Source of the DNA: Candidatus Iainarchaeum sp.
GTDB taxonomy: Archaea > Iainarchaeota > Iainarchaeia > Iainarchaeales > UBA10219
Length of the DNA stretch: 64,000 bases
Reading direction: 5' to 3'
Assembly (NCBI GenBank): GCA_018304425.1
Contig: JAGVWE010000005.1
Span: 128,001 to 192,000 of the forward strand
In this document: piece after piece, positions 16,496-54,477 of the stretch
Layout: each line of letters starts with the position of its first letter
Position numbering within the stretch: position 1 is the first letter of the stretch
Notes under the pieces: model-generated
Databases searched by the model: none
Told to the model about the DNA's origin: nothing
What the model saw: the letters and a program-made list of their open reading frames with translations, nothing else
Program-made: the position numbers and the translations under genes

Positions 16496-17120
16496 AAGCC
16501 CCGAATCCGCTTGTCTTACGGGAAAACGAGTAGACCAGCCCCGCATACAGCAGGTCCCACCCCAGAATGGATGCGAAAAGGAAAGGCAGCAAAATGGATT
16601 CCTGGGCAACCGGTTTATACAAATAGAATGCGAGGCTCGCGGCAGCCGTTCCCAGCAATTTGAGCACCGCAATGGAAGCAGATTGGCCCCTCAAATTGCC
16701 GCGGTTCAACAGCATGGCAACGAACAACATGGACATCACCAGGTTCTGTCCGAAGGCAGCATACACGCCGTCAAAGTCGTGGAATTCTTGGCTGACCAAC
16801 AACACCAAGCCAAAGGCCGTGAGCAGGACCAGCACAAAGCATGCATAAAATTGTTGGGGGGAAAGACGGGGAAACTCGTTTCGCCCGAATTTCAGGAATT
16901 CCAATGCGATGAATACATCCAAAAAGAGCCATGCAACGTTGATGTAAAGCTGGGGGGCGGCCGGCGGGTACAGGAACGAAAAAATGAACTCCCAGGAGAG
17001 GTTGGCGCACAAGGCAAACAAGGGCATTCCATAGGTCTGGTCCTTGAAGCCCCGCCAAATAATTAGCAGGTAGGCAAGCGACCAAAAGAAGCCGCTCGCA
17101 TTCATCAATGCCTGGAACAT
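16482..17120 (-). CDS. Pyr4/PaxB-like transmembrane terpene cyclase family protein
   Basis: About 7 TM segments; W..AY...RGFKDQTYGMPLFALCANLSWEF motif and C-terminal WD; GGTGG SD before ATG 17120. Confidence 0.75.
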   Translation of the reverse strand: MFQALMNASGFFWSLAYLLIIWRGFKDQTYGMPLFALCANLSWEFIFSFLYPPAAPQLYINVAWLFLDVFIALEFLKFGRNEFPRLSPQQFYACFVLVLLTAFGLVLLVSQEFHDFDGVYAAFGQNLVMSMLFVAMLLNRGNLRGQSASIAVLKLLGTAAASLAFYLYKPVAQESILLPFLFASILGWDLLYAGLVYSFSRKTSGFGASTVP

Positions 17121-17143
17121 GGTGCAACCACCGGCGCATGACC

Positions 17144-17246
17144 GGCTGTGCCATACCCTGTATGGCACTTTTTCGCCAGCCTTTTGTAAAAAGGCTGTGG
17201 CATGCCTAGTATGCCACTTTTTCGCCAGCCTTTTGTAAAAAGGCTG
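17144..17246 (-). repeat. tRNA-associated double-hairpin element family A, two tandem copies (period 49 bp)
   Basis: Minus strand: CAGCCTTTTTACAAAAGGCTG-GCGAAAAA-GTG(G/C)CATAC-nnn-G(C/T)ATG(C/G)CAC twice, starting 3 nt after the tRNA-Gly 3' end. Confidence 0.92.
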
Positions 17247-17249
17247 GAG

Positions 17250-17320
17250 TGCAGCCGCCGGGGGTCGAACCCGGGTCGAAAGCTTGGGAAGCTCTCATCC
17301 TGCCACTAGACTACGGCTGC
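17250..17320 (-). tRNA. tRNA-Gly(CCC)
   Basis: GCAGCCG/CGGCTGC acceptor stem; TT-CCC-AA loop; GTTCGAC T-loop. Confidence 0.96.
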
Positions 17321-17376
17321 GTCCAGGGATTTTGGGCGGGGAATGGTTTTAAAGACAACGCCCTTACCCTCCTTGC

Positions 17377-18030
17377 ATGGCGAGGCTCTCCCCCCGAGAA
17401 GCGGCGGCCGAGGCCTTCAAGCGGCTCCACAAGGCGTATCCAGACGCCAAAGTCGAGTTACGGCATGCGAACCCCTTGGAGTTGCTGGTGGCAACCATGC
17501 TCTCCGCGCAGTGCACGGATGCCCGCGTCAACCAGGTCACGCCCGCGTTGTTCAAGAAGTATGGGTCGGCGGCCGACTACGCGAACGCGGACCTGAAAAC
17601 ACTGGAACGGGAAATCCATTCCACGGGGTTCTACAAGAACAAGGCCAAAAACATCGTGAACACGTGCAAGATAATCGTGGAAAGGCACGGCGGCCGGGTG
17701 CCGGAGTCGATGGCGGAATTGACGGAGTTGCCGGGCGTGGCGCGGAAGACCGCGAACATCGTGTTGGCGTCAGCCTTTGGAATCGTGGACGGCATTCCCG
17801 TGGACACGCACGTATGGCGGGTCTCGCAGCGGCTGGGGTTGACGAAGTTCGATGACCAGGACAAAATCGAGCGAGCCCTGTGCGCGTTGCTGCCGCGCGG
17901 GAAATGGTGGCCCTTTTCGACGCTGCTCATCTGGCACGGTCGCCATACCTGCATGGCCCGCAAGCCGGCTTGCAGCCGGTGCCCGTTGAACGACTTCTGC
18001 CCGCGCGTGGACGTGAGGGTGAGCGAGTGA
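17377..18030 (+). CDS. nth: Endonuclease III
   Basis: LSAQCTD, LPGVARKTAN HhH motif, VDTHV, C-x6-C-x2-C-x5-C FeS motif. Confidence 0.96.
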   Translation: MARLSPREAAAEAFKRLHKAYPDAKVELRHANPLELLVATMLSAQCTDARVNQVTPALFKKYGSAADYANADLKTLEREIHSTGFYKNKAKNIVNTCKIIVERHGGRVPESMAELTELPGVARKTANIVLASAFGIVDGIPVDTHVWRVSQRLGLTKFDDQDKIERALCALLPRGKWWPFSTLLIWHGRHTCMARKPACSRCPLNDFCPRVDVRVSE

Positions 18031-18356
18031 AACCGCCCCTTCGGGAAATCGAGGCCGAAGAGTTGGTCAAGCAATTGAAGTCCAAGAAGAGGCCGGTGGT
18101 GTTGGACGTGCGTTCCGTGGATGAATTCCTCGTGGACCACTTGGAGGGCGCGGTGCACGTGCCCGTGCAGGAACTGCAGGCCCGTGCCGGGGAGCTGGCG
18201 GCCTTCAAGGGCAAGGCCATGGTATGCGTGTGCGAGCACGGCCAGCGGAGCAGCATGGCGGCCGCCATCCTCTCCTGGATGGGCTTCCAGGGCGTGCAAA
18301 GCCTCCAAGGCGGCCTCGCAGAATGGCGGGAAAAGGGGCATAAGACGGTTAAATGA
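18027..18356 (+). CDS. Single-domain rhodanese
   Basis: LDVRS..EF..HLEGA, CEHGQRS active loop, LQGGLAEW; GTG start overlaps the nth stop. Confidence 0.9.
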   Translation: MKPPLREIEAEELVKQLKSKKRPVVLDVRSVDEFLVDHLEGAVHVPVQELQARAGELAAFKGKAMVCVCEHGQRSSMAAAILSWMGFQGVQSLQGGLAEWREKGHKTVK

Positions 18357-18419
18357 CCCTCCTGACCGGAGTTTTTAAGGCCCAAAAGGTTTAACTGCAC
18401 CTGAACGCAATTAGTTACT

Positions 18420-20081
18420 ATGCCCGGCCCCCTAGAACCGCGAAGGTCAAAGTTGTCTCGCTGGCCGCGCCTCCTTCGACCAGCGCTAGGGCCTGCGCCA
18501 GTTGAATGGCGCGGAAAAGCAGTGCCCCATACCATTGAATTCAATCCTGCCACCCAGCAGCACACGGGAATTAAGTCGGTGACCGTGGAACCTTTACAGG
18601 CCAGACACGTTGAAGGCCAGGAGAGCATCGGCTTACATCAAGTTGACATTCACTTGACTAGTGGGCGAACCTTTAAAGCGAGAATGCTGCCCGGGCTGGC
18701 CCGTGCACCGGTTGGAATTGTTTATCTCAAGGGAATGATTCCCCCTCCCGGCCAAAAAGCCGGTGTTGACCGGACTACATTCAGGGAAATGCGGAAAAGC
18801 GAGGAGGGCCAGAAGGCCTTTGCCGCCTTTGCGGAAGCCCAAAAGCTCAAGGAACAGAATATCCTCAAAGAGCTTTCCTCCAGGGGCCTGCCGGTCATCA
18901 CTTTTGAATGGACTGGCACCTATGAAAACAAGGAGTTTGGAAGTTTTACGGAAGCAACCATGAAGGCCGACATCGATCGGGCCATTCAAGCCATGCATTT
19001 ACTGACCGGCGCGAAAAAAGCGGTGCTGTCAGGGTGGAGTTTGGGTGCTACTGCCGCGTTATGGTATGGCGCCAAGCATGCAAACCGGCATGAGATCGCC
19101 GGCATACTTGGGATGAGCCCCTACCACGTGCAAAGAGAAGCGGGGCTTAGTGGCAGGCCCATAGGGATTCAACCAGAAGAAACCCGGGGACACGTCATAC
19201 AAAGAATCGTGTCCCCGCAGTACCGTGACATGGCGGCAGTCCAATTTGCTGAAAATTTTGAGGCAGGAAAAATTTTCGGGTTCCTGGGAGACCCATCCAT
19301 GAGGCGGCTGGCACGCCTTCGAGTACCCATTGTATTGACCCACGGGGAGAGGGACATTCTTTCCTTTCACGGCCGCACAGAGCGGATTGCTGAAGAAATA
19401 CGTAGATGGAGACAGGCACGAAACCTGCCAACCGATGACATTTATTATGAACGGGTGCCTGGCACCGGCCATGATGCAATTACTGGAAGCCATGGCCGAC
19501 TCCAGGGCCTGCTGGATTCACTTTTGTCAGACTTGTTTGGATTCCACCATACATTACACAGTTTCCCCCCTAGCGCAAGAAAGTTTGTACAAGAACTGCC
19601 ACCTGAAAAGCAGCTTTCGATACTAATCCATCACCTCGAACACCAGCCTACTGGAAAAAAGCGAATTCCTTTAAGGACATACCATGACGCTGACAGAAAG
19701 GCTTGGACCGAGTTTAAACCGGTCATGCCTGGCGTGCCGCCTGTGATGGTGCATGGTGTGGGGGATAAGGTAATAAGCCAGGAAACGACCAGACGATTGA
19801 CTGCGTTGCTTAAAACTATGAATGTGCTTCAGAGGGGACAAGACCAAGTGATACCCCAGCATTTGGAAATTGTGCGGGAGATGGGTATCCCGATGGATAG
19901 GATTCCAGCGAACCAGACGGCGGAGAGAACCGAATTAATTGGAAGATTGAGAGCCCAGTTCGTTAAGTTATGCTATGAGACGGCCAAACAGGTGGGCGTC
20001 ACTCCACGGGAATTCCTGGTTTTGGCAAGAATATTCGTTGGGATGCCGGTTCGCCGGCTACGTCCACCAGCCGCCCCCTAA
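18420..20081 (+). CDS. Alpha/beta-hydrolase-fold ORFan with long unrecognised extensions
   Basis: GWSLG nucleophile elbow, HGERD, GTGHD; more A/T-ending codons than neighbouring genes. Confidence 0.75.
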   Translation: MPGPLEPRRSKLSRWPRLLRPALGPAPVEWRGKAVPHTIEFNPATQQHTGIKSVTVEPLQARHVEGQESIGLHQVDIHLTSGRTFKARMLPGLARAPVGIVYLKGMIPPPGQKAGVDRTTFREMRKSEEGQKAFAAFAEAQKLKEQNILKELSSRGLPVITFEWTGTYENKEFGSFTEATMKADIDRAIQAMHLLTGAKKAVLSGWSLGATAALWYGAKHANRHEIAGILGMSPYHVQREAGLSGRPIGIQPEETRGHVIQRIVSPQYRDMAAVQFAENFEAGKIFGFLGDPSMRRLARLRVPIVLTHGERDILSFHGRTERIAEEIRRWRQARNLPTDDIYYERVPGTGHDAITGSHGRLQGLLDSLLSDLFGFHHTLHSFPPSARKFVQELPPEKQLSILIHHLEHQPTGKKRIPLRTYHDADRKAWTEFKPVMPGVPPVMVHGVGDKVISQETTRRLTALLKTMNVLQRGQDQVIPQHLEIVREMGIPMDRIPANQTAERTELIGRLRAQFVKLCYETAKQVGVTPREFLVLARIFVGMPVRRLRPPAAP

Positions 20082-20255
20082 AGGCTATTTCCAGTTTTTA
20101 ATCGGGTTCTTGTAATCCTGCTATTCCTTGTACGGTTACGGGAAGGGGAAAGTCGATTGCGGCCCATAATTGCTTTTGCCCTTGTAGGCAAGACAGGGAC
20201 CTGTGATTAAACAAGGGAAGCAACCTATATTTTCCCGAATGGGCCATATACTGCC

Positions 20256-20831
20256 ATGTCGGCTCACCAGTATTGTCTAGAGAGCGGAGCGGCAGACGGC
20301 AATTGCCGGTTGTGCGTGCCGCTGCCTTCCCCCGGCGAGTTCTTCAAGGTGCCGGAACGCGAGTTGCTGGAAGGCATTGAAAAGAGAATGACCCTGGCCT
20401 CCGCCAAACTGGAACCCATTCTTTCCGTCCTCGTGGGCTTGCTGGAGGAAAACAAGCTGCGGTGCGCGATTGACTTCAGGGTCAAAAGCCTGGGAAGCAT
20501 CCACTTCAAGATGCTGATAAAGGCCCGGCCACCGGAAAAGATATACGACTTGCTGGGCATCCGGTTCATCGTTGACTCGGCAGAGGACTGTTACCGGCTC
20601 GCCAACCTGCTGCACATGGAATTCGACTTCGTCGCCAGCGAGTTCGACGACTACATTGCCAAGCCCAAGAACAATTACCGTTCCCTGCACACGGTCCTGA
20701 AATGGGACGAGGAAACAGCCTTTGAAGTTCAAATCCGGACCCAGAAAATGCACGAGGACGCGGAAAGGGGCAGCGTGAGCCACTGGCAGTACAAGATCGG
20801 CTTGCTGCAGCACGTCCCGGGCTTCACGTGA
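20256..20831 (+). CDS. Stand-alone RelA/SpoT (p)ppGpp synthetase-domain protein
   Basis: RVKS..SI..K, IYDLLGIR, EFDDYIAKPK.NYRSLHT, EVQIRT, SHWQYK. Confidence 0.88.
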   Translation: MSAHQYCLESGAADGNCRLCVPLPSPGEFFKVPERELLEGIEKRMTLASAKLEPILSVLVGLLEENKLRCAIDFRVKSLGSIHFKMLIKARPPEKIYDLLGIRFIVDSAEDCYRLANLLHMEFDFVASEFDDYIAKPKNNYRSLHTVLKWDEETAFEVQIRTQKMHEDAERGSVSHWQYKIGLLQHVPGFT

Positions 20832-20833
20832 GA

Positions 20834-21346
20834 CTATTTCTCATCCAACAACTTTTCGGTGAGGTCGGCAAAATCAAAGCGGCTGAACCGCGTTTCGTCG
20901 AGGATGATGAGCGCGCACTTGGGGTCCTCCAGGAGATAGGGGAACCCGCCCAGGAACGCCTTCAATTCGGTCAACTTGTTGTGGAACTCCCGGTAGTCCC
21001 GGAAATGCGCGAAATGCGTGCTCTCGGTTTCCTCGAAGCTGGCGACGATGGGCTTCAAGATTTCCAGGATTTTCGCCTTGGCCGCCTTCCGGTGGGCCGC
21101 GGAAGACAAGGGGTTGACCTTGAAGTGAATGGCGCCCAGATACTTGCATCCAAGGGCCTGCAGGTTCACCCACGCTTTTTGCACGAGATAACCCTCTTCC
21201 AGCAACCGGTTTTTGATGGCTGAAACCGTGGAAACACTTAAGCCCAGCTTGCCGGCAAGGGAACTATTCGTCAATTCAGGAAAGCGAAGCAAGGCCACCA
21301 TCACCTTTTTCTCGCGATGGGTGAGGGTTTTCTTCATCCGCTTCAA
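20834..21346 (-). CDS. Winged-helix (Lrp/AsnC-like) transcription regulator
   Basis: N-terminal HTH LTNSSLAGKLGLSVSTVSAIKNRLLEEG; paralogous to the adjacent ORF. Confidence 0.75.
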   Translation of the reverse strand: MKRMKKTLTHREKKVMVALLRFPELTNSSLAGKLGLSVSTVSAIKNRLLEEGYLVQKAWVNLQALGCKYLGAIHFKVNPLSSAAHRKAAKAKILEILKPIVASFEETESTHFAHFRDYREFHNKLTELKAFLGGFPYLLEDPKCALIILDETRFSRFDFADLTEKLLDEK

Positions 21347-21873
21347 GGCAATGCCTCCAACTTGTAAGCAAAGAGCTCCCGGAGTTTGTCGGTGAAATCA
21401 AAGAAGCGCTCGGTATGGGCAAGCTTCACGGGGCTCATGACCAGCGTGGTTTCGGCGAGAAACCCGAGCGCCGTATACCGATCCACCCACAGCTCGTGCA
21501 ACAACCACTTGACTTCCGCGTAATCCCGCCCCAAAAAAAAACCAAGGTAATCCGTATCAGTCGTTTTCGCAAAAACAAGGTAAGGCACTCTCGAAATCTT
21601 GGCAAAAGCGGCGGTCTGCCGCCGCTTGGTAAACTGGATGCCGGGCTTGAACGAACCAAAGCAGGCACCCATCACGGTTACGTTCAACCGTTCCAGGTTA
21701 GGCAAATAAAAGTTTTTCACCACGCCTTTCCGGGTCAAGCGGTTGCGGACCGCGGTAAGCGAGGAACGCTTGACTTCCAGCCGCTGCGCCAACTCGACGT
21801 CGTTCAGGTCCGGATAGCGGCAGATGCCGTACAAGACCTTCTTCTCCAAGGACATGAGGCGAACCGGTCGCAT
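21343..21873 (-). CDS. Winged-helix (Lrp/AsnC-like) transcription regulator
   Basis: HTH LNDVELAQRLEVKRSSLTAVRNRL; both paralogues end in a FDFxD motif. The longer ORF-track start overlaps tRNA-Leu. Confidence 0.75.
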   Translation of the reverse strand: MRPVRLMSLEKKVLYGICRYPDLNDVELAQRLEVKRSSLTAVRNRLTRKGVVKNFYLPNLERLNVTVMGACFGSFKPGIQFTKRRQTAAFAKISRVPYLVFAKTTDTDYLGFFLGRDYAEVKWLLHELWVDRYTALGFLAETTLVMSPVKLAHTERFFDFTDKLRELFAYKLEALP

Positions 21874-21960
21874 GACCTCTTTTATGCCCCTGAACGAATT
21901 TAATGATATCCGTTCGCCAAAAAACGCCGGAAAAGCCGGAAAAAGGCGAAAAAAAAGGAG

Positions 21961-22043
21961 TGCGGGAGGGCGGATTCGAACCGCCGTAGCCGCTAGGGCG
22001 CGGGCCCTCAACCCGGTGTCGTTGGCCGCTTGACTACTCCCGC
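21961..22043 (-). tRNA. tRNA-Leu(GAG)
   Basis: GCGGGAG/CTCCCGC acceptor stem; TT-GAG-GG loop; variable arm; GTTCGAATC; C-C mismatch at the top of the anticodon stem. Confidence 0.93.
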
Positions 22044-22103
22044 AACTGACGAGGCGTCAGTTGACACCGCATACGTCGTCCCATCTGCGATGGGACATAA
22101 ATA
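22044..22103 (-). repeat. tRNA-associated double-hairpin element family B, copy abutting the 5' end of tRNA-Leu
   Basis: TATTTAT-GTCCCATC-GCA-GATGGGAC-GACGTATGCGGTG-TC-AACTGACG-CCT-CGTCAGTT, 60 nt. Confidence 0.92.
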
Positions 22104-22132
22104 TACCAGTATCAGCCTGACCGCTTTAACTA

Positions 22133-22552
22133 TTACTTCTTGAGGTGGGCTTTTATTCGTTCGCTTACGGTTTCAAGCCCGGGCATTTCGGCTTTGAAGC
22201 GATTGTGCACGAAGTTCAAGCCGTCATCCGCCTTGCGGGGAATCACGTGGAAGTGCACGTGGAAAATGACTTGCCCTGCGACCCGGTCGTTGGACTGCAA
22301 GATGTTGAAGCCCGGGCTGTCCGTGGCCTTCATGACGGCCGCACCCAGCTTCTTGGCGGCCAGGATGGCGGCCGCAAGTTCCTCGTCCCGGGCCTCGGCC
22401 ACGGTGGGCGCGTGCCGCTTGAGCACGACCAGGCAATGGCCGTCCGCAGCCGGATAGATGTCCATGAAGGAAACCACGTGCTCGTTTTCAAAGACTTTCA
22501 CACAAGGCAACTGCCCGGCCACGACCTTGCAGAACACGCAGTCCGAATTCAT
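22133..22552 (-). CDS. HIT family nucleotide hydrolase
   Basis: DCVFCK, GHCLV, HVHFHVIPR histidine triad. Confidence 0.95.
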   Translation of the reverse strand: MNSDCVFCKVVAGQLPCVKVFENEHVVSFMDIYPAADGHCLVVLKRHAPTVAEARDEELAAAILAAKKLGAAVMKATDSPGFNILQSNDRVAGQVIFHVHFHVIPRKADDGLNFVHNRFKAEMPGLETVSERIKAHLKK

Positions 22553-23250
22553 TGAGTGCTTCCCTCTGCTGCTTTCTCGGGCTTGGAGATGTTCTCAATC
22601 TTTATCCAGAAGTTGAGGGCCTTGCCCACCATGGGATGGTTGAAGTCCACGCTCGCATGCGTGGCCGTTACCCCGACCACGGACAAAGGAAAGGGCACGC
22701 CCTCCGCGTACAACGTGTCCCCGACTTTTGGCTCGATGCCTTGCTGCTTCAATTCCGCCAAGGAACCCTCCTTGACCGGTTTGGGGTCGGGCAAGCCATA
22801 GGATTCCTCGGCAGACAAGTGAATGGATTTTTCCTCGCCCACTTTCATGCCGAGCACGGCCGCGTCAAAGCCCAGAATCATCAAGCCCATGCCGGCCACG
22901 AATTCCATGGGCCGGTTCCCGTTCTTCTCCGTGGAGTCAAACACGGTGCCATCGTCAAAGGTTCCCTTGTAAAACACCCGAATGGTGTCGCCCTTTTCGA
23001 CGACCAAGCCGTCAACGGGAGGGGTTGCCTCCGCCACCGGGCCAACGGCCGGAGCCACTGGAGTCACCGGGGCCGGCGTGGAAAGCGCTTCCGTTGCCGG
23101 TGCGGGTGCTTCCACGGACAAGGGCTTTACCGGCTCTCCGCCAGCCACGGCACTGGGCCTTCCGCTGCCTGCCTGGGTGCTTGTACCCGCCTGGGTGCAA
23201 CCCAGCACCAACAAGACGCCCATCAACGCCACGAAAACAGTGAAGTTCAA
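22549..23250 (-). CDS. FKBP/SlyD-type peptidyl-prolyl isomerase with N-terminal lipoprotein signal
   Basis: GTFDDGTVFDS, ILGFD, DFNHPMVGK; LVLGC lipobox; TTG start after GAGGAGGGG SD (start approximate). Confidence 0.88.
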   Translation of the reverse strand: MNFTVFVALMGVLLVLGCTQAGTSTQAGSGRPSAVAGGEPVKPLSVEAPAPATEALSTPAPVTPVAPAVGPVAEATPPVDGLVVEKGDTIRVFYKGTFDDGTVFDSTEKNGNRPMEFVAGMGLMILGFDAAVLGMKVGEEKSIHLSAEESYGLPDPKPVKEGSLAELKQQGIEPKVGDTLYAEGVPFPLSVVGVTATHASVDFNHPMVGKALNFWIKIENISKPEKAAEGSTQ

Positions 23251-23441
23251 GTCATTCCCCTCCTCGTCAACGCCAAACAGAAAGCGATTCAACCCATCAA
23301 TTAAACTCCTGGAAGGAATTTAAAGGTATTCCCGGAAAAACCCCCCAAAAACAGGCGACCAAAGGCTTAAATACGAGTTATTTCCTCTTATAGTGGGTTT
23401 TTGGAACCCAATCAAGCATTTTCTGAATGGAGGGGTAATGG

Positions 23442-24074
23442 ATGGGATTCAACTTCGGTGCATTGCCAGGCGTCTTGACTAAGCCCAAGCAGGCTTTCAA
23501 GGACCTTGGCCCGCAAACCATGAAAGAAGGAGCAATTCTTGCCGCCTTGTTTTCAATTGTTGCCAGCGCCATATCTGGCGTGGTCGGCGGTCAAATGAAT
23601 GTAGTGGGTTGGGTGGTTGGAGCAGTCGTGGCAGCCATCATCTTGGTAGCCACCGGCTGGCTGGCAGCCATGCTGGCCAAGATGGTATTCCACGGCAGCG
23701 GAAACACCCGCAACACCGTGGGCTACCTGGGTTATGGCTCGTTCCTGGGCGTCGTTTCAGCCATCGTTGGCGCGGTGCTCGGCATGATGGGCCTGGGCAT
23801 GATGGGCAGCGTGACCCCCGCGAATGCCATGGCCATGGCAGGCGGCGCCCTCGGCGTTGCCGCCATCGTGGGCCTGGTTTTCTTCCTGTGGTCGCTCTAC
23901 ATCAACGGCGCAGCAGTGGGAACCGCGAACGGCATTCGCCTCATTTTCGGTGCGATTTCCTTCTTTGTCGCGGCATTAATCGTGGGCATAGTTGTGGGCA
24001 CGATTCTCGTCATGGTGCTGGGCATGATTGGCCTGGGCGCCATGATGGGCGGCGCAGCCGCGATAGCCGGATGA
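23442..24074 (+). CDS. Yip1-domain membrane protein
   Basis: VLTKPKQAF N-terminal motif and about 5 TM helices. Confidence 0.75.
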   Translation: MGFNFGALPGVLTKPKQAFKDLGPQTMKEGAILAALFSIVASAISGVVGGQMNVVGWVVGAVVAAIILVATGWLAAMLAKMVFHGSGNTRNTVGYLGYGSFLGVVSAIVGAVLGMMGLGMMGSVTPANAMAMAGGALGVAAIVGLVFFLWSLYINGAAVGTANGIRLIFGAISFFVAALIVGIVVGTILVMVLGMIGLGAMMGGAAAIAG

Positions 24075-24095
24075 TCAAACCAGTCGAGGATTGGC

Positions 24096-24133
24096 GCGGC
24101 TGGGAACAGCCGCGGCCCCTGTTTTTTCTTTTT
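24096..24133 (+). terminator. Hairpin plus T-tract terminator
   Basis: GCGGCTG-GGAA-CAGCCGC followed by TTTTTTCTTTTT. Confidence 0.6.
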
Positions 24134-24199
24134 CCCCTTATGTAGTGAGCCCCGGGAAAAGCATTTTTAAACACGATGGACGCCTATCAGTAAAGTATT

Positions 24200-24288
24200 G
24201 GGAGTTAAGGAGGTAAGTCACACTGCTCAATCCCCTTCGGGGGTGGCGCCTGTAACCGGGTGCTGCAGCTCCCTGGCTTACCTCTTTT
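24200..24288 (+). ncRNA. Candidate structured small RNA
   Basis: 14-bp closing helix 24207-24220/24274-24287; C(UUCG)G hairpin; BRE/TATA at about 24154-24171; T-tract downstream. Confidence 0.5.
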
Positions 24289-24359
24289 CACTTACTCTGT
24301 TTTTCCGGCAAACCCCACCCCTTATTAATCGTTTTCGGATGGAATTGGATACCAGCGCC

Positions 24360-24538
24360 GCGGAGGTGGCAGAGTGGTCTAATGCGCCAGCCTGGAAAGG
24401 CCTTGAACCCTGTAAGGGTTTACAAAAGGCCTGCGAAAAGGGGTCATACGTTGTATGGCCCTGCCTGATAAGGCCGCAGGAAGGTTCCAGCGAGCTGGTT
24501 TCCGCAAGGAAGCACGAGTTCGAATCTCGTCCTCCGCG
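24360..24538 (+). tRNA. tRNA-Ser(GGA) with 95-nt BHB intron at 37/38 (24398-24492)
   Basis: GCGGAGG/CCTCCGC acceptor stem; CCAGC-CT-GGA-A|intron|A-GCTGG; central helix CTGG/CCAG; outer helix GGCCTT/AAGGTT; variable arm. Confidence 0.93.
24398..24461 (+). repeat. Family A element inside the tRNA-Ser intron
   Basis: AGGCCTT[14-nt insert]TTTACAAAAGGCCT-GCGAAAAG-GGGTCATAC-GTT-GTATGGCCC. Confidence 0.85.
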
Positions 24539-24608
24539 CTGCCCTTTCCTTCTTTTCCTGGATGGGGGACGCGCTTTGCCTTTTAACCTTTTCCCATCCT
24601 AACACAGT

Positions 24609-26417
24609 ATGGCAGCGAAAGACCTAATCTTCGTTCTCGATTTCGGCGGACAATATGCCCACCTCATTGCCAACCGCGTCCGCCGCCTGGGGGTTTACTC
24701 GGAGATCAAGGACCCGCTCACGCCCCTGGCCGAGCTCCGCAAAGCCAAGGGAATCATCCTCAGTGGGGGGCCGGGAAGCGTCTACGACTCCCAGGGCACG
24801 CCCTATAACCCCGAACTGTTCAAGACCCGGAAACCCGTCCTCGGCATCTGCTACGGGCACCAGGTGATGGGCCACGAGTTGGGCGGCAAGGTGGTTCCCG
24901 GCACGGTGAAAGAGTACGGCAAGGCCGCGCTCATGGTCAAGAAGAAAGAGGGCCTCTTTGCCGGCCTCTCGGACCACGAAACCGTGTGGATGAGCCATGG
25001 TGACACGGTCGCAAGGCTGCCCCCCGGCTTCGAAATCATCGGCTCGACGCCTGACTGCCCGCACGCGGCCATCGCGGACTTCAAGCGCAGGATGTTCGGC
25101 GTGCAGTTCCACGTCGAGGTAACGCATACCCCGCAAGGCGGGCGGATGCTGAAGAACTTCCTGTTCAAGGTCTGCAAGTGCAAGAAGAGCTGGAACGTGA
25201 AGGGGTTTGCCGCGCAGAAGGTGAAGGAGCTTCGAAGGGAAGTCGGGAAGAAGAACGTGTTCCTGCTTATCAGCGGCGGCGTTGACTCGGTGGTTTCGCT
25301 GGCGCTGCTGAACAAGGCCATTGGCTCCAAGCGCATCTATGCCTTGCACGTCGACCACGGCTTCATGCGCAAGGAGGAAAGCTTGGCCGTGGAGCGGGCA
25401 CTGAAGAAGCTCAAGATGTCGCCGCTGCACGTGGTGGACGCGGGCAAGGAATTCTACGAAGCCCTAAGGGGCGTGGTGGAGCCGGAGCAGAAGCGGAAGG
25501 TCATCGGAGGACTCTTCGTGAAGCTTGCCAATCAGGAGCTGCGGCGGCTGAACCTCAAGCCCGAGGACTGGCTGCTGGGCCAGGGCACGATTTACCCGGA
25601 CACCATTGAAAGCGCGGGCACGAGGCACGCCTGCCGCATCAAAACACATCACAACCGCATTGACTCGCTCAAGGAAATGATGGAAGCCGGTTTGCTGGTG
25701 GAGCCCATCAAGGAGTTGTACAAGGACGAGGTCCGGGAACTCGGCGTCCAGCTCGGCTTGCCCGGGGCAATCGTGAAACGGCATCCCTTTCCCGGGCCGG
25801 GGCTCGCCATCCGGGCCCTTTGCTCGAACGGCCAAACCGAACCCGTGCCGGAGGGCTTGGGGGAACGCGTGAACGCCTTGGCAAGCAAGTTCGGGTTGAA
25901 GGCCCAGGTGCTGCCCCTTCGAAGCGTGGGCGTGCAGGGAGACGAGCGCACCTACCGGTTGGCCGTGGCGTTGCAGGGCCAGGCAAGCTGGACCGCCTTG
26001 GAGGAATGCTCGACGCGGCTCACCAACGAGGTCAAGGAAGTCAACCGCGTGGTGTGGCTGCTTGAACCGAAGGCCATTGAATCGGTGAGGGTCAGGCCCG
26101 GCTATTTGACGCGCAGCCGGCTGGACTCGTTGCGGGAAGCCGATGACGTGGTCAACCAGGCAATGGCAAAAACCAGGTGGTATGACCGGATATGGCAGTT
26201 TCCCGTGGTGCTCGTGCCCCTCGCGGTCAACGCCGGAGAAGGCGAGTCCATCGTGTTGAGGCCGGTGTTCTCCACCGAGGCCATGACCGCGAAATTCGCC
26301 CCCCTGCCTCCCGCCTTGGTGGAGAAAATGGTGAAGGGCATCCGGAAACTCAAGGGAATAACGGCCGTGTTCTACGACGTGACGCACAAGCCGCCGGCCA
26401 CGATTTGCTGGGAGTGA
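24609..26417 (+). CDS. guaA: GMP synthase, fused glutamine amidotransferase plus ATP pyrophosphatase
   Basis: LDFGGQY, GICYGHQ, QFHVE, SGGVDS, IKTHHN, HPFPGPGL, KPPATICWE. Confidence 0.97.
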   Translation: MAAKDLIFVLDFGGQYAHLIANRVRRLGVYSEIKDPLTPLAELRKAKGIILSGGPGSVYDSQGTPYNPELFKTRKPVLGICYGHQVMGHELGGKVVPGTVKEYGKAALMVKKKEGLFAGLSDHETVWMSHGDTVARLPPGFEIIGSTPDCPHAAIADFKRRMFGVQFHVEVTHTPQGGRMLKNFLFKVCKCKKSWNVKGFAAQKVKELRREVGKKNVFLLISGGVDSVVSLALLNKAIGSKRIYALHVDHGFMRKEESLAVERALKKLKMSPLHVVDAGKEFYEALRGVVEPEQKRKVIGGLFVKLANQELRRLNLKPEDWLLGQGTIYPDTIESAGTRHACRIKTHHNRIDSLKEMMEAGLLVEPIKELYKDEVRELGVQLGLPGAIVKRHPFPGPGLAIRALCSNGQTEPVPEGLGERVNALASKFGLKAQVLPLRSVGVQGDERTYRLAVALQGQASWTALEECSTRLTNEVKEVNRVVWLLEPKAIESVRVRPGYLTRSRLDSLREADDVVNQAMAKTRWYDRIWQFPVVLVPLAVNAGEGESIVLRPVFSTEAMTAKFAPLPPALVEKMVKGIRKLKGITAVFYDVTHKPPATICWE

Positions 26418-26423
26418 AAAACG

Positions 26424-27077
26424 TCAGGGCTTCAAGGCCTTGAGTTGTTCTACCGCTTCCGCTGGGTTGGCGGACGCGAAGACGGTGGTTCCGGCCACCA
26501 AGACGTTGGCTCCTGCCTTGAGGCAGCGCAAGCCGGTTTCCAGGTCTATTCCGCCGTCGACCTCGACGTCGCAGGCAATCTTTTTCTCTTTGAGGTAGCG
26601 CGCGAGTTGCTGGATTTTGTAGACCGCGTTCACGTTAAAGGCTTGGCCGCCAAAACCTGCTTCGACGGTCATGACTTGTGCCAGGTCGACGTCGGCGAGA
26701 AAGGGGAACAGTTTTTCTATGTCCACCCGGGCGTTGGCCGAAATGCCTTTGACCAGGTCGTTGACTTGCATGAGTTTGATGGTTTGCAGGGGGTTGGCAA
26801 CCGTTTCAACGTGGAAAATGGCCCCATTCGCCCCGGCCTCGGCAAAGGGCTTGATGAACCGGTCCGGGTTTGAAACCATCAAGTGGACTTCAATGGGGAG
26901 GTCGGTCACTTTCCGGAGGGCCTTGACGACGGGAACGCCCATGGAGAGGTTCGGCACGTAGTGGCCGTCCATCACGTCCACGTGGATGAAGTCCGCGTTC
27001 TTCACCTTGCCGATTTCCTCGGCCAGGTGCGCGAAGTCCGCGTTCAAGATGCTGGGACCGACTTTGACCATGACCAT
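26424..27077 (-). CDS. rpe: Ribulose-phosphate 3-epimerase
   Basis: PSILNAD, HVDVMDGHYVPN, HLMV, GFGGQ, VDGG; start at 27077 or 27071. Confidence 0.95.
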   Translation of the reverse strand: MVMVKVGPSILNADFAHLAEEIGKVKNADFIHVDVMDGHYVPNLSMGVPVVKALRKVTDLPIEVHLMVSNPDRFIKPFAEAGANGAIFHVETVANPLQTIKLMQVNDLVKGISANARVDIEKLFPFLADVDLAQVMTVEAGFGGQAFNVNAVYKIQQLARYLKEKKIACDVEVDGGIDLETGLRCLKAGANVLVAGTTVFASANPAEAVEQLKALKP

Positions 27078-27093
27078 TACCTGCAGCAAAGCC

Positions 27094-27166
27094 TATTTAT
27101 GTCCCATCGAGCCCTTCAGGCGAGATGGGACGACGTATCGTGTGCAGCCGCCACCTTCAGGCGGCT
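27094..27166 (+). repeat. Family B element, variant copy abutting the 3' end of tRNA-Ala in opposite orientation
   Basis: TATTTAT-GTCCCATC-[15-nt loop]-GATGGGAC-GACGTATCGTGTG-C-AGCCGCC-ACCTTCA-GGCGGCT. Confidence 0.85.
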
Positions 27167-27167
27167 A

Positions 27168-27239
27168 TGGACTGGCGGGGAATCGAACCCCGAGTCTCCG
27201 CGTTGCGAACGCGGCGTCTTACCATTCGACTACCAGCCC
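27168..27239 (-). tRNA. tRNA-Ala(CGC)
   Basis: GGGCTGG/CCAGTCC acceptor stem with G3:U70; CCGCG-TT-CGC-AA-CGCGG anticodon arm. Confidence 0.96.
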
Positions 27240-27240
27240 A

Positions 27241-27315
27241 AGGGCTTTTTACAAAAGCCCTGCGAAAAGGTGCCATTCTCACGAATGGCACGGCCTTTTT
27301 ACAAAGGGTTTGCGA
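27241..27315 (+). repeat. Family A element, about 1.5 copies, abutting the 5' end of tRNA-Ala in opposite orientation
   Basis: AGGGCTTTTTACAAAAGCCCT-GCGAAAAG-GTGCCATTC-TCAC-GAATGGCAC-GGCCTTTTTACAAAGGGTTT-GCGA. Confidence 0.9.
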
Positions 27316-27432
27316 CCTTGTCTCCCCCTGGGAGACGAGGCCCCGAAGACAAAGTCTTCGGGGAAATGCCCTGTGCATTGCACAGGGCTGGCTCGGCCTT
27401 TCGGCCTCGCATCTGGGCAGCCGTTGCCCAGA
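27316..27432. repeat. Run of five closely spaced, unrelated short palindromes
   Basis: CCTTGTCTCCC-CCT-GGGAGACGAGG; CCCCGAAGAC-AAA-GTCTTCGGGG; GCCCTGTGC-ATT-GCACAGGGC; GGCC-TTTC-GGCC; TCTGGGCAG-CCG-TTGCCCAGA. Confidence 0.88.
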
Positions 27433-27487
27433 CTGCAAGATAACTGAAACCAAAGGAATTTATTAAGGGTTAACATTAATATAAAGC

Positions 27488-30400
27488 ATGCCGGATGGAG
27501 AGGGGAAGGACGCGGTAGCCGCTGGTTCGGGGGAGAAGCCCAGGCCCTTGGGGGCAGGGGAGCGGGTGGTGAAGCTCAAGGCCGCGCCGAAGACCGACCT
27601 CTTTGAAGAGGTCTTGACCGGGAAAAGCCATGAAGAGCAGTCCCTGGACGAGCTCTCGGAGGCCGAGGAAAAGAGGGCCCAGGAAGCCGAGAAAACCGTG
27701 GCCACCAAGCCGGGCAGCGGGGCTGCGCCGGTGGCGGGGGCGGAAATGCCGGCGCCTGTTCAGGCTCGCCGCGGGAGCCCTCGGAAGGCTGCCCCTAAAA
27801 TCAGGGTACGCAAGAAGGGGGTTGAAGAAGCCGGGGCCGGCGTTGCGTCGAGTGAGGGCGGGGACGACGATGACGAGGAAGACGAGCCAGGGGAACCGAA
27901 GCCGCCCCTGGACATCGAGGAAGGCGATGACTTAAGTGCCGGCGACTGGAATGACTTGTTCAAGGAGGGAGACACCCGGGAGGAAGGCATCAAGGCGGCG
28001 CAGGCCCTGCCGGAGGCAGGGGCCGGGGAAGCGGGGTCTTCGGCGGGCGAAGAAGGACCGGTGGAGGCAAAAACCCCGCAGCCCAGCAAGGAGGAAATCC
28101 GCAGGGAGTTGATTGCCAGGACCGTTGCGGCCGGCCAAGGGGATTTGACTCCCTTGAAGGAGGGGTTGCCGCTCAAGTTCTTGGAGGACCCGGAGAAGGG
28201 CAACGTGTTCATTGGCCGCAAGAAAAACATTTGGAAGAAGTACGGGTATGAGGGCGCGTTGCTGGTTGGAAAGGTAGTGGAAGAAGAGTTCAAGGAACGG
28301 CACGTCTACTTGGACTCGTTGAACCCGCACGTGGTGTTCGTTTGCGGGGCCCGGGGTTCGGGTAAATCGTATATCATGGGGGTCATGGCCGAGGAACTCG
28401 CGCGCAAGAACAAGAACGTGGGAACGGTGGTCATTGACCCGGTTGGCGTGTTTTGGAGCATGAAGTACCCGAATAAGGAGGAAAAGGAGCTCGCGTTGAT
28501 GCCGGACTGGGGCTTGCAGCCGGAGGGCCTGGACAGCTTGCGCGTGTTCATCCCAGAGGGCATCAAGAGCCAGACGCCTAAGGAGACCTATGACGCTACC
28601 TTCACCATGCAGCCCAGCCTCTTGACTTCGGATGACTGGTGCCTGACCTACGGCATTGACCGGTTCAGCCCCACGGGCCTCTTACTGGAAAAGACGCTGA
28701 AGAAAGTCGAGTTGGGGTATGAGAACCTGGATGGCAAGAAGTTCCCAGCCCGCAGGCGGTCTTATTCCCTGGATGACCTCATTGCCTGCCTGGAAACGGA
28801 TGCGGAATTGAATTCGAGGGACAAGGGGTACAAGCAGGACTCCATTCGTGCCCTGGTTTCCCGATTTGAGGCCGCCAAGAACTGGGGGATTTTCAGTGAT
28901 AGGGGCACGCCCTTGGTGGAAATCAGCAAGGAAGGCCAGTTAACGGTCATTGACACGAGTTTCCTGGACGACAATGTCACGGCCCTGGTCATCGGGATAC
29001 TGGCGAGGAGGCTGTTGGCGGCCAGGAAGCTGTCCACGCGGAAGGAGGCCGCCAAGAAGTTCCAGGAAGAGGAGGGGGTTGACGTCCTGGAAACGGATAT
29101 TCCGCCTACCTGGCTGTTCATCGACGAGGCGCACACCCTTATCCCGAGTGGCAACGTCAAGACCCCGGCCACGCATGCCCTGGTCGAGTACGTGAAGCAG
29201 GGGCGTCGACCGGGTTGTTCCCTGGTGTTTGCCACGCAGCAGCCTTCGGCCATTGACACCAAGGTGTTGAGCCAATTGGATGTGATGGTCACCCACAAGC
29301 TGGTGTTCGACGACGACATCAAGGCCATTTACAAGCGCAGCCCGACCATCGTGCCCTTTAAGTACAAGAAGCCGAGTTTCGTGAAGACCCTGCCGATTGG
29401 CACGGCGCTGGTGGGGGATCGGACGGAGGAAACGAGCCGCGCCTTCATCATGAAAATCAGGCCCCGGTTGTCCCAGCACGAGGGCCGTGAGGCGGAGACC
29501 ACGGAGCGTTCCGTGGAGTTGGGGGCCAAGCAGGTGGAGCAGTTGGCGGTGAGCATGTTGTTGCGCCGCCTGGAAGAAGAGGGCGAGACCAGCATCGAGA
29601 CCGTGGAGAAGAGCGTGCAGGTGCTTAACCAGAAGTACAAGAGCACAGCCGACGCGGAGAACGTGCTCGCGATGCTGAAGCGGCATGGACTTGTAGTGGA
29701 CGAGGAGTTCGTGCGGTTGAAGGAGTACGTGGAGAAGGAAGAGGGAACCGGGAAACCGGCGGCAGCCAAAGCCGGCGAGGAAAGCCCCGTGGAAGCGGAA
29801 GAAGAAAAGGAGGCCGAGGAAGAGGCCCAGGAAACGGCGGGGGAGGAAAAACAGGGGAAACCCGTCCCCGAAGCCGTGGAAGCGGGCTTCGGCGGGCAGA
29901 CCGAGTTGCTGGCCTTGCCTGCCCGCGTGAACCAGCAGGCGGCGCAGCGCGTGGTGGATGGCCTGCGGCACAGGAAAGTCCTGGGCTTGCTGGGCAGCGA
30001 GGAAGTCATCGAGGACCTGCAATTGAAGTATGTCACGATTTGGCGCGTCAAATACGATGTCTACAACCAGCGCAAGGAATTCATTGCCCGGGAATGCTTC
30101 GTTAATTCCATGAGCGGGGAATTCATCCACTTCTTGAAGGACCGGTTCGTGGAAAGCAAGGGCTTGAAGGAAGTGTACGAGTTGGGCGAGGACGAAATCC
30201 AGTTCGTGCGCCTGCTGGGCCGCAAGGAGATGTCCTTACAGGAAATCGTGAAGCACACGCTGTTGGACGAGAAAAAAGTCCGCCCCGTCCTCGACAAGCT
30301 GCACTTCAAACGGTTGCTGGGCAAGACCAAGAAGAACAACGAACTCCATTACTGGCTGTTGAAGGAGTTTGACTTGCCGCCCCATGAAAGGCACGACCTC

Positions 30401-37911: not shown

Positions 37912-37983
37912 CGGCGACGGCCGGTGAAAGCTGGCCTTTTCCCCGGAGCAAGAGCGAAGGGGCAGGAAGCGTGGTTGGCGGCA

Positions 37984-38043
37984 TATTTATGTCCCGCCGC
38001 AGGCGGGACGACGTATGCGGTGCCGGCTGACGCCTCGTCAGCC
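37984..38043 (+). repeat. Family B element, copy abutting the 5' end of tRNA-Ser(CGA)
   Basis: TATTTAT-GTCCCGCC-GCA-GGCGGGAC-GACGTATGCGGTG-CC-GGCTGACG-CCT-CGTCAGCC, 60 nt. Confidence 0.92.
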
Positions 38044-53631: not shown

Positions 53632-53706
53632 TGGCGCGCACCCCCTCCTTTTTCCCTCTTCTTTTTATTTCTTTGGCCCCCCCTACAATTACGTCGGTGC
53701 AGCTTC

Positions 53707-54477
53707 ATGGAAGAAAAACAACGCTCCTTGCTCGTCATCCTGATTGCGGCCCTGATTTTCGGGTTGGGCGCCTTCTCCGGCCCCACGTTCTTGGGCCTCT
53801 TGTCGGGCGAAAACGGTTTGGGGAGTCCGGGCCTGCCAGCCATCCAGTCCAGCGGGCAGACCGCCAGCATCAACATCGTGGCGGTAACCAGCCAGGGCGG
53901 CGGAGAGGTGTCCAAGGGAGTCGTCGAGTTGGTGCCGGGAAAGGGCCGCGTGTTAATCAACACCAACCCCTTTGTGGAACCGGACACGCAGTACTCGTTT
54001 GAGACCGCTGCCCAGGTAGCCGAAGGGGTCACGGGAAAGAGCTTGAAGAACGTGGACATCATTTTCACGGTCGAAGAATCCAAGGCCAAGCTGGTGGGCG
54101 GTCCCTCCGCAGGCGCGGCCTTCACCGTGGCCACCATCGCGGCCGTGGAAGGCCGGAAAGTGCGGACCGATGCCGCCATCACGGGAACCATGGACAAGAC
54201 CGGCCGGATCGGCCCCATCGGCGGCGTGCTCGAGAAAATGGTGGCCTTCGGCGAACTCGGCGGCAAACTCTTCCTGGTACCCAAGGGACAGGGCACCGTC
54301 AACTACCTGGTCGAGGAACCGGCCGGCGAGGGAAGGCAGGGGCCCTACCTCATCAAGCGGTTCCGCATGACGCAAAAGGCCCTGAAACTCGATGACTACG
54401 CCAAGGAACATTTCGAGGGAATGAAGGTAGTGGAAGTAGCGCACGTCGATGAAGCCCTGGCGCTGCTGGTACAATAG
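53707..54477 (+). CDS. Membrane-anchored Lon-like S16 protease domain
   Basis: N-terminal TM; GGPSAG, ITGT, IGGVLEK Ser-Lys dyad. Confidence 0.88.
   Translation: MEEKQRSLLVILIAALIFGLGAFSGPTFLGLLSGENGLGSPGLPAIQSSGQTASINIVAVTSQGGGEVSKGVVELVPGKGRVLINTNPFVEPDTQYSFETAAQVAEGVTGKSLKNVDIIFTVEESKAKLVGGPSAGAAFTVATIAAVEGRKVRTDAAITGTMDKTGRIGPIGGVLEKMVAFGELGGKLFLVPKGQGTVNYLVEEPAGEGRQGPYLIKRFRMTQKALKLDDYAKEHFEGMKVVEVAHVDEALALLVQ

Follow-up and report, generated by a model that had tools for sequence, protein, structure and literature searches.

REP and BIME repeats of enterobacteria and pseudomonads are short extragenic palindromes that occur in many copies, alone or in mosaic clusters with conserved linkers; they lie mostly behind genes, and their stems are kept by compensatory change. 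The double-hairpin elements of fungal and algal mitochondria are tiny two-hairpin repeats of compact genomes, where they lie in spacers, in introns and beside RNA genes, and are regarded as mobile although they carry no gene. In compact eukaryote genomes, Ty3 and the Dictyostelium TRE elements use the borders of tRNA genes as safe landing sites under rules of position and orientation, and these are autonomous retrotransposons guided by Pol III factors.

The element described here was studied in a 64,000-nucleotide stretch (hereafter the window) of a genome of Candidatus Iainarchaeum sp., a DPANN lineage. Like REP/BIME repeats it is a short imperfect palindrome, extragenic and multi-copy, in clusters with conserved linkers. 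It differs from them in having no RAYT/Y1 link, in keeping a strict polarity and a distance of 0-4 nt from the ends of tRNA genes, in starting tRNA introns, in its mirror-repeat purine tail and in its archaeal host. The mitochondrial elements have organelle hosts and are unrelated to it in sequence, and to our knowledge show neither a fixed polarity at tRNA ends nor a mirror tail. It shares with Ty3 and TRE the borders of tRNA genes and the rules of position and orientation, but it has no coding capacity and no reverse transcriptase was found in the genome.

Two further systems bear on the comparison. The main text of Holder et al. (2015, PMC4666352), where REP/BIME repeats are briefly described, reports ITxF/TM-ECO intrastrand triplex motifs in prokaryotic genomes that are intergenic, highly conserved and multi-copy with no transposase nearby, and its authors connect their triplex motif to genome rearrangement. 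As in our element, a pyrimidine/purine hairpin precedes a third tract, which could occupy the groove of the hairpin. The motif studied there is G/C-rich and bacterial, and the word 'tRNA' is absent from that main text; in contrast, the tract of our element is A/T-rich and short (5-12 triples), with a second hairpin attached and an association with tRNA genes, and its triplex is putative. Transposed tRNA introns of Thermoproteales are described as near-identical across isotypes in one genome, and their spread is thought to occur at the DNA level by a mechanism given as unknown (Fujishima et al. 2010, as summarised in PMC4090602 and 10.64898/2026.10.13.758758). Our element likewise places a common sequence in introns of different tRNA isotypes within one genome; unlike those introns it is found in DPANN and also occurs at both ends of tRNA genes, at one end of an rRNA and downstream of protein genes, and hence there is a visible donor pool beyond introns.

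Element copies in the window and their anatomy

Matches of a covariance model of the element (R1) are listed below with the neighbouring genes. Window positions are contig coordinates minus 128000.

17120 (start), - strand, the strand of copy b: Pyr4-like membrane-protein ORF (ORF and Pfam)
17148-17197, - strand: element copy b, farther from the tRNA, in tandem with copy a at a 49-nt period (R1, 75.1 bits)
17197-17246, - strand, same as tRNA-Gly(CCC): element copy a, tRNA-proximal (R1, 70.8 bits)
17249-17320, - strand: tRNA-Gly(CCC) gene (ARAGORN; Rfam tRNA 60.5 bits at 17250-17320)
24360-24538, + strand: tRNA-Ser(GGA) gene (Rfam tRNA 44.9 bits; ARAGORN with introns, i(39,95))
about 24398-24492, + strand: tRNA-Ser(GGA) intron, 95 nt, canonical 37/38 position (ARAGORN with introns)
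24398-24461, + strand: element copy, first 64 nt of that intron (R1, 45.8 bits)
24433-24440, + strand: linker of the intron copy
24441-24461, + strand: hairpin 2 of the intron copy
27168-27239, - strand: tRNA-Ala(CGC) gene (Rfam tRNA 69.9 bits; ARAGORN 27167-27240)
27241-27291, + strand, opposite to the tRNA: element copy at tRNA-Ala(CGC) (R1, 68.5 bits)
27292-27420, + strand: imperfect second hairpin 1 and multi-hairpin module B, which begins GCGACC (from the sequence)

A first-pass annotation had placed the unit at three window loci, all of them tRNA genes, and all four copies there match the model. Copy a begins 2-3 nt past the 3' end of tRNA-Gly(CCC) and consists of hairpin 1, the mirror tail or linker, and a hairpin 2 with a single A.C mismatch in the alignment of copies. 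In the tRNA-Ser(GGA) intron, hairpin 1 starts at the 5' splice site, and a mini-hairpin of ~16 nt (about 24405-24420) is nested within it and breaks its sequence; both hairpins are present in the predicted minimum free energy fold. The copy at tRNA-Ala(CGC) has hairpin 1 at 1 nt from position +1, and a TATA-like box lies ~246 nt upstream of the gene, beyond the repeat array. As this copy is opposite to the tRNA strand at its 5' end, the 5' leader carries the reverse complement of the element.

Fifteen canonical copies scoring 68-75 bits occur genome-wide. In hairpin 1 the inner stem, of pyrimidine/purine type, is conserved (CCTTTT, loop, AAAAGG), and the three to four pairs outside it vary and covary; the 9-bp hairpin 2 is alike within one genome and free between genomes. 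The stem covariation that had been noted is borne out by these copies, in which 99.3% of cells are paired (28-50% in slid controls) and 11 of 18 pairs have changed on both sides, a value that none of 500 shuffles reached. The description as a structure-constrained, multi-copy, non-coding repeat stands. The core and linker had been taken as fixed, which is so only in part: the core of the Ser intron copy is interrupted by its mini-hairpin, and the linker varies with the purine strand of hairpin 1.

The purine tail that follows hairpin 1, GCGAAAA, is the mirror image of the hairpin 1 purine strand with one C inserted, and the two change together among the copies compared. In the Asp-intron copy, for example, a stem T-A pair has become C-G and the mirrored tail position has gone from A to G. 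In all five asymmetric long variants the tail fits the mirror of the purine strand (8/9 or 12/14) better than a direct copy of it (6 or 10), and the opposite strand of these hairpins matches the tail by 2-3. Of 53 modules of relatives counted by hand, 38 have a tail A-run as long as their paired T/A run; run-length agreement is, however, confounded by subfamilies, and an automatic parse gave a weak result (5/15 against 2.1 expected, with 47 of 2000 shuffles as high). A tail that mirrors the purine strand and changes with it is the signature of a triple-helix-capable repeat. Judged from sequence, the element has the layout of an intrastrand triplex motif, namely a pyrimidine/purine hairpin with a third tract in mirror register, and may form a triple helix.

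The element matches no Rfam family. A scan of the window at gathering thresholds found only tRNAs and RNase P RNA, and a scan of 17000-27500 at E<=1 gave over a copy only a 15.9-bit chance match to a family with a gathering score of 84. No published description was found in the literature searched.

Distribution, polarity and tRNA introns

The three window loci are samples of a short structure-forming DNA repeat family that is widespread in the lineage. In the 1.48-Mb genome the model has 31 matches with E<=1e-3, and an exact 13-nt core occurs 17 times, on 14 occasions inside a tRNA gene or within 100 nt of one. Of the 15 canonical copies, 11 are in an intron or no more than 4 nt from a tRNA end (binomial P 3e-30 with the whole genome as background and about 3e-15 with non-ORF space). 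The enrichment proposed for tRNA leaders, trailers and introns is upheld by the genome scan and is strong. The other four lie at the 23S rRNA 3' end (one), after CDS stops (two) and in a second tandem unit (one); the claim that other intergenic regions lack copies thus holds for the window but not for the genome. From the junction and intron listings, 19 of 48 tRNA genes have a module of the family and 29 do not. Several unrelated repeat families occupy the same niche in this genome.

The polarity of the copies is fixed. Hairpin 1 faces the tRNA in all 17 tRNA-adjacent matches of this genome, and in relatives in 5/5 at 5' ends and 5/5 at 3' ends. The element is consequently on the strand of the tRNA at 3' ends and in introns and is inverted at 5' ends, where 8 of 8 copies are inverted relative to the tRNA transcript. 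Upstream copies sit between a TATA-like box and the tRNA, and copies at 3' ends put a T5 run ~8 nt after it, where element-free tRNAs have T-runs of their own. This polarity, the mirror-repeat tail, the spread over the order and DPANN and the many off-tRNA copies in relatives all go beyond the first-pass annotation.

The link to introns proves stronger than had been claimed, since the module opens six of the nine tRNA introns of the genome. These have the features of archaeal tRNA introns, with a defined 37/38 interruption and exons that join to a normal tRNA (ARAGORN, Rfam). The two tRNA-Pro(UGG) genes, whose exons are identical, differ by its presence: one has a normal TATA box and T-run and is intron-less, and the other carries, besides an intron of the element family, a copy at +1 that is inverted. 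Each intron copy has its nearest relative outside introns: the Asp intron copy and the Val(GAC) 5' copy share 92% identity, and the Gly intron copy shares 88% with a copy behind a CDS. Outside introns, the Arg 3' copy is 94% identical to the His 5' copy. In tRNA-Ser(GGA), sequence and fold suggest a segment pairable with the anticodon loop just before the 3' splice site, and with hairpin 1 in place of the outer helix the predicted BHB motif would be relaxed. Since the repeat abuts tRNA ends and begins most tRNA introns in this tiny archaeon of groundwater and in its relatives, it is a concrete candidate for the origin of archaeal tRNA introns.

Across the order, the conserved part of the element was matched in 66 of 150 other genomes, in at least 20 families. 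Whole families gave no match (0/16 and 0/13 genomes) and some genomes have tens of copies. An exact-pattern scan found matches in records of Iainarchaeum, Woese-, Pace-, Micr-, Alti- and Undinarchaeota. Close strains yielded no pair of empty and filled alleles: contigs break at the repeats, and even the top metagenome relatives of the neighbouring guaA gene share only about 50% identity with it.

Persistence, function and routes of spread

The explanation we prefer, to which we give roughly an even chance, is that of a structured DNA repeat, selfish and REP/BIME-like, whose copies survive at sites from which RNA processing removes them. The element would be selfish or near-neutral DNA of the REP/BIME kind that lacks its own transposase and is multiplied and homogenised as DNA. 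Its structure, which is hairpin-forming or prone to triple helices, probably provokes template switching, gene conversion or insertion, with single-stranded loops and stem bases as the proposed targets. Copies would then persist in 5' leaders, 3' trailers and introns, from which RNase P, RNase Z and the splicing endonuclease respectively take them away, and also behind genes; the distribution is what we observe, and removal from RNA is the cause that we infer. Copies at the 37/38 site of the anticodon loop may become, or rebuild, tRNA introns; those at 3' ends may supply a T5 run able to end transcription, and those at 5' ends may shift the promoter 100-250 nt upstream and so give long structured leaders. 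In favour of this reading we count the covarying stems, the enrichment at tRNA boundaries, the kinship of intron and non-intron copies, the tRNA-Pro(UGG) pair as a case of gain or loss, the nested and tandem units, the duplicated tRNA fragments beside hairpin 1 at five loci, the patchy spread, the mirror tail and the position of upstream copies behind a TATA-like box. Against it stand the absence of terminal inverted repeats and of a regular target duplication, and the lack of an empty/filled allele pair. Survival alone does not explain the strict rule that hairpin 1 faces the tRNA.

That rule, together with the fixed spacing of 0-4 nt, would be expected of a host cis-element for making stable RNAs, a reading that we consider unlikely but worth serious attention. 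On this account a conserved protein would bind hairpin 1 and the tail, or a triple-helix RNA would form in the precursor; the element would mark, protect or time the cuts made at both tRNA ends and at splice sites, and would end transcription behind tRNA, rRNA and some protein genes. The copy at the 23S rRNA 3' end and the placing of the T5 run are consistent with such a role, and the mirror tail would let leader-sense RNA form triples of the U.A-U type. Retention of the conserved part in so many families points the same way. Furthermore, at an orthologous tRNA-Leu locus of two species, hairpin 1 and the tail share, with the tRNA, 96% identity across 125 nt, against only 75-78% in the flanks, and in other families tRNA-Gly(TCC) and tRNA-Ser(GGA) have intron copies at an unchanged position; such constraint could mean function. 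However, more than half of the tRNA genes (29/48), including the clean tRNA-Pro(UGG) paralogue, do without the element, as do 84 of the 150 genomes of the order and whole families among them. The RNA at 5' ends contains its reverse complement, and therefore a single RNA-level recognition cannot serve all contexts. In relatives, 19 of 30 copies lie >100 nt from any tRNA, and the use of the same niche by several unrelated repeat families also argues against a dedicated host signal.

It is improbable that the copies are leftovers of small integrative elements of plasmid or virus type that recombined into tRNA genes, with the hairpin module as the arm adjoining the attachment site. Duplicated tRNA end fragments of 11-26 nt do lie beside hairpin 1 at five loci (in this genome at about 228828 of contig C3 and about 174268 of contig C5, and at L047, L058 and L054), and a weak tyrosine-recombinase match stands with a Y1 transposase gene beside tRNA-Thr at the start of contig C1. 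Mobile-element integration has also been proposed for Caldiarchaeum as a source of tRNA intron gain and tRNA fragments (PMC3293823). Yet only about 40-250 nt lies between the duplicated fragments, most copies lack a fragment alongside, intron copies and copies behind protein genes are not accounted for, and neither the ORFs neighbouring the window copies nor Pfam revealed an adjoining integrase gene.

The annotation had suggested a PATE/RAYT-like route, in which a Y1 (HUH) transposase, either RAYT or of the IS200/IS605 type, would move the element as a REP/REPIN or PATE; in our view this is very doubtful. Two hairpins with a conserved single-stranded stretch between them and extragenic, clustered copies are what such an element would have, and the genome contains one Y1_Tnp gene (101.9 bits) and one TnpB-like gene. 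The hairpins at the ends of the sole Y1 gene are, however, unrelated to the element. Y1 genes occur in 20 of 66 genomes of the order with the element and in 22 of 84 without it, and Y1 matches (Pfam PF01797) are absent from the genomes richest in it (G065, G132, G064 and G016), of which G016 is a single contig, 99% complete, with 26 element matches. Terminal inverted repeats were absent from the aligned copies and their flanks, and neither the listed tRNA junctions nor the tRNA-Pro(UGG) pair showed a regular target duplication. An IS200/IS605-derived PATE and a classical MITE are both disfavoured on these grounds.

Spread at the RNA level, in which excised intron RNA is re-ligated into precursors by the splicing endonuclease and ligase and then copied into DNA, is the least credible route: the boundaries do match RNA cleavage sites (+1, a few nt past the discriminator base, and 37/38), but the genome, 92.55% complete, gave no match to a reverse transcriptase (PF00078), and insertion into the tRNA transcript cannot yield the inverted 5' copies.

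Nested and tandem units and mosaic arrays occur among the copies, and the combination of hairpin 1 with module B seen at tRNA-Ala(CGC) recurs at three further genome loci (C5 170548, C7 53824 and C3 220913).

Structure and tRNA-gene placement of the element

The genome assembly (1.48 Mb, 58% G+C, seven contigs, the window being C4:128001-192000) shows archaeal features in its DNA, namely an archaeal RNase P RNA, tRNA introns at 37/38 and TATA-type promoters. The three tRNA loci reported in the first-pass annotation do carry the element: a tandem pair follows tRNA-Gly(CCC), one copy lies in the tRNA-Ser(GGA) intron and one at the 5' end of tRNA-Ala(CGC). A typical module consists of hairpin 1, with a conserved CCTTTT/AAAAGG inner stem, a GCGAAAA tail and a 9-bp hairpin 2. 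In an alignment of 15 genome copies, termed canonical here, both 9-bp stems were paired in 99.3% of cells, which bears out the covariation described earlier, and two-sided changes occurred in 11 of the 18 stem pairs, a value matched by none of 500 shuffles. As a control, sliding the partners by 1-3 columns lowered pairing to 28-50%. Counts of G.U versus A.C in the 15 copies (3 versus 2) were uninformative as to the strand that folds.

Run on the genome, a covariance model derived from the trimmed alignment recovered the 15 aligned copies at 68-75 bits together with variants down to 30 bits, giving 31 hits in total at E<=1e-3. The lower score of the Ser(GGA) intron copy, 45.8 bits, is due to a mini-hairpin nested within its hairpin 1. 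No Rfam family matched the element, and no earlier description was found in the literature, supplementary material aside.

The association with tRNA genes was measured against 48 genes (43 from Rfam and five long-intron genes from ARAGORN). Of the 15 canonical copies, eleven are either intronic or no more than 4 nt away from a tRNA end (P = 3e-30 versus the genome and 3e-15 versus the 63 kb outside long ORFs), confirming the proposed enrichment. The remaining four comprise a second tandem unit, two copies just past CDS stops and one at the 3' end of the 23S rRNA; hence the earlier impression that other intergenic regions contain no copy does not hold at genome scale.

Placement follows a strict polarity, with hairpin 1 forming the tRNA-proximal end in 17/17 tRNA-adjacent hits of this genome. 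Here, 3' copies share the strand of the tRNA, 5' copies are inverted at 0-4 nt from +1, and intron copies are on the tRNA strand and begin at the 5' splice site. The same rule, read by eye, is kept in relatives at 5/5 5' ends and 5/5 3' ends. In this genome, TTTAWAWA marks normal tRNA promoters at about -42 to -25; at the 5'-copy loci the TATA-like boxes fall beyond the repeat arrays. The inverted copies sit between the tRNA and a TATA-like box 100-250 nt upstream, and we therefore infer that they are transcribed, as the reverse complement, within long leaders. Hairpin 1 was also considered as a TATA-like promoter of the adjacent tRNA and rejected, given that 5' copies place it at -2 to -22. 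For annotation, caution is needed with the many DPANN tRNA genes that have long structured leaders and repeat-built introns.

Element modules in tRNA introns

A module of the element family opens six of the nine tRNA introns of this genome, and the intron copies have their closest similarity to non-intron copies. The introns and an informative gene pair are as follows.

Introns of tRNA-Gly(TCC), tRNA-Asp and tRNA-Ser(GGA): canonical module form
Introns of tRNA-Leu(CAA) and tRNA-Pro(UGG): variant whose loop is longer and whose tail reads GGGAAAA
Intron of tRNA-Gln(UUG): long CTT-interrupted form
Contig C7, 52237-52309 and 53911-54033: two tRNA-Pro(UGG) genes with identical exons, 1.6 kb apart

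One tRNA-Pro(UGG) gene is clean, with a normal promoter and a T-run; its partner carries the intron together with an inverted copy at +1 and more modules upstream. This pair is the closest approach to a filled and empty site that we found. Orthologous empty sites were sought through guaA-anchored scans, in which the best proteins were only about 50% identical and mostly bacterial. DNA contigs from four runs end at the repeats, and their joints at the Ser intron resemble other tRNA-Ser genes; a 47-nt skip in the Gly tandem, present in one contig, is too weak for calling a copy-number allele.

These results bear on how archaeal tRNA introns arrive. In Asgard archaea, a 2026 preprint examined copying, mobile elements and reverse transcription as intron routes, none of which proved general (10.64898/2026.10.13.758758). 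Here a single family is seen in all the relevant states, as an intron opener, at tRNA 5' and 3' ends, free in intergenic DNA and in the filled member of the tRNA-Pro pair, and their coexistence provides a testable donor pool together with a sequence rule of polarity, spacing and mirror tail.

The mirror tail and the spread of the element

The first-pass annotation described the linker as fixed. GCGAAAA is indeed broadly kept, yet it changes along with the purine strand of hairpin 1, of which the tail is a mirror image except for an extra C behind the first G. In the Asp-intron copy, one stem T-A pair has become C-G and the mirrored tail base has changed from A to G. Furthermore, in all five asymmetric long variants (loci L036, L044, L047 and L048 from four other genomes and one in this genome) the tail fits the mirror of the purine strand (8/9 or 12/14) more closely than it fits a direct copy (6 or 10), the opposite hairpin strand giving only 2-3 matches. 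A hand count of 53 modules, confounded by subfamilies, found the tail A-run equal to the paired run in 38, longer by one in 10, longer by two in four and shorter by one in one; a stricter automatic parse recovered only 15 modules and its result was weak. Judged from sequence, this arrangement could in principle form purine-motif triples on the element strand, and U.A-U type triples might in principle form on the complementary strand or RNA. Triple-helix-prone repeats, so far linked to genome instability in bacteria, would be extended to archaea and tRNA genes.

The relatives compared belong to the same order, all in other families and genera. Outside this genome, the model matches 66 of 150 genomes of the order; among high-quality genomes, this one included, it matches 28 of 53. 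Copy number is uneven, reaching tens in some genomes and zero in entire families (0/16 and 0/13). Hairpin 1 and the tail are conserved between genomes and hairpin 2 is not. At an orthologous tRNA-Leu locus in two species, the tRNA, hairpin 1 and tail are 96% identical with flanks at 75-78%. The element is inside a tRNA gene or no more than 100 nt from one at 14 of 29 best-hit loci and in 11 of 30 hits from three genomes, two lists that overlap by one locus; introns of Gly(TCC), Ser(GGA), Ala, Arg, Trp and Leu tRNAs bear it in relatives. By ORF scan, copies away from tRNAs are mostly behind gene ends in either orientation, and an impression that hairpin 1 abuts start codons of divergent genes in relatives was not upheld.

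An exact 19-base pattern was found in at least 117 stretches, from Iainarchaeum, Woese-, Pace-, Micr-, Alti- and Undinarchaeota and some Clostridia records; archaeon GW2011_AR10 is also among the records with the motif. Among the matches listed, ARAGORN placed a tRNA near 8 of 65 archaeal pattern hits, and several further ones abut, by eye, tRNA pieces that it missed. Clostridia-type MAGs (L265, L267, L269, L280, L287, L306, L322 and others) contain many repeats that share the hairpin and GCGAAAA tail and have a G+C-rich hairpin in front of them; shared origin, transfer or convergence may lie behind this.

Origin of the element and neighbouring repeats

The patchy distribution, the clean paralogues and the copies away from tRNAs favour a model where the element is selfish DNA that would survive where RNA processing takes its copies out, a reading in which our confidence is about even. 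These same observations speak against a function for the host, which sequence conservation and strict polarity keep alive and which we regard as improbable. Mobilisation by a Y1/RAYT transposase, proposed in the first-pass annotation, was not supported; simple RNA-level insertion is ruled out because the 5' copies are inverted, and no reverse transcriptase was found in this genome. Recombination or template switching at the element is suggested by nested insertions in hairpin loops and by five loci where duplicated tRNA fragments adjoin hairpin 1.

A more specific and somewhat doubtful proposal, drawn from sequence patterns, is that hairpin and mirror tail constitute triple-helix-forming mobile DNA, lacking its own transposase, which would land with fixed polarity on single-stranded loops and stem bases of tRNA genes; a landing in the anticodon loop would create a spliceable intron. 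If true, this would supply the long-sought vehicle by which introns enter tRNA genes, in DPANN archaea at least. Among published elements, REP/BIME repeats, intrastrand triplex motifs (PMC4666352) and transposed Thermoproteales introns (as summarised in PMC4090602) come nearest.

Several other features accompany the element (C1 to C7 being contigs of this genome).

Window 27090-27166 and 22044-22105, and upstream of tRNA-Ser(CGA) near 37975-38043: repeat family C, a TATA-like box, a hairpin and a second small hairpin
Window 27312-27420; C5 about 170440-170545; C7 about 53700-53840; C3 about 220800-220905: multi-hairpin module B, starting GCGACC
C1 59205-59299, 289529-289626 and 292485-292582; C3 229145-229242; C5 174304-174381: D variants
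C1 1-1524, at the contig end: Y1 transposase gene (81-437, 101.9 bits) and a weak tyrosine-recombinase match (617-877), with tRNA-Thr(CGT) alongside

Family C lies upstream and forward at Leu(GAG), Ser(CGA), Ser(TGA) and Leu(CAG) tRNAs; at Ala(CGC), Ala(TGC), Leu(TAG) and Gln(TTG) tRNAs it is downstream and reversed. In every case the TATA-like end is tRNA-distal. Module B replaces the usual tail and hairpin 2 after a hairpin 1 at its four loci. The D variants have other hairpins nested in the hairpin 1 loop, followed by the usual tail and hairpin 2, which suggests repeated insertion into hairpin loops. The arrangement at the C1 end resembles an element integrated at a tRNA gene. A recurring duplication of 5' fragments is seen in loci L058 (genome G051), L054 (genome G037) and L274, where the order is tRNA promoter, first 15-16 nt of the tRNA, element copy, complete tRNA. 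Beside tRNA-Ser(GGA), a fused GMP synthase (window 24609-26417) has best matches of about 50% identity that are bacterial, mostly CPR-type, and not archaeal; from these matches, the gene was possibly acquired horizontally.
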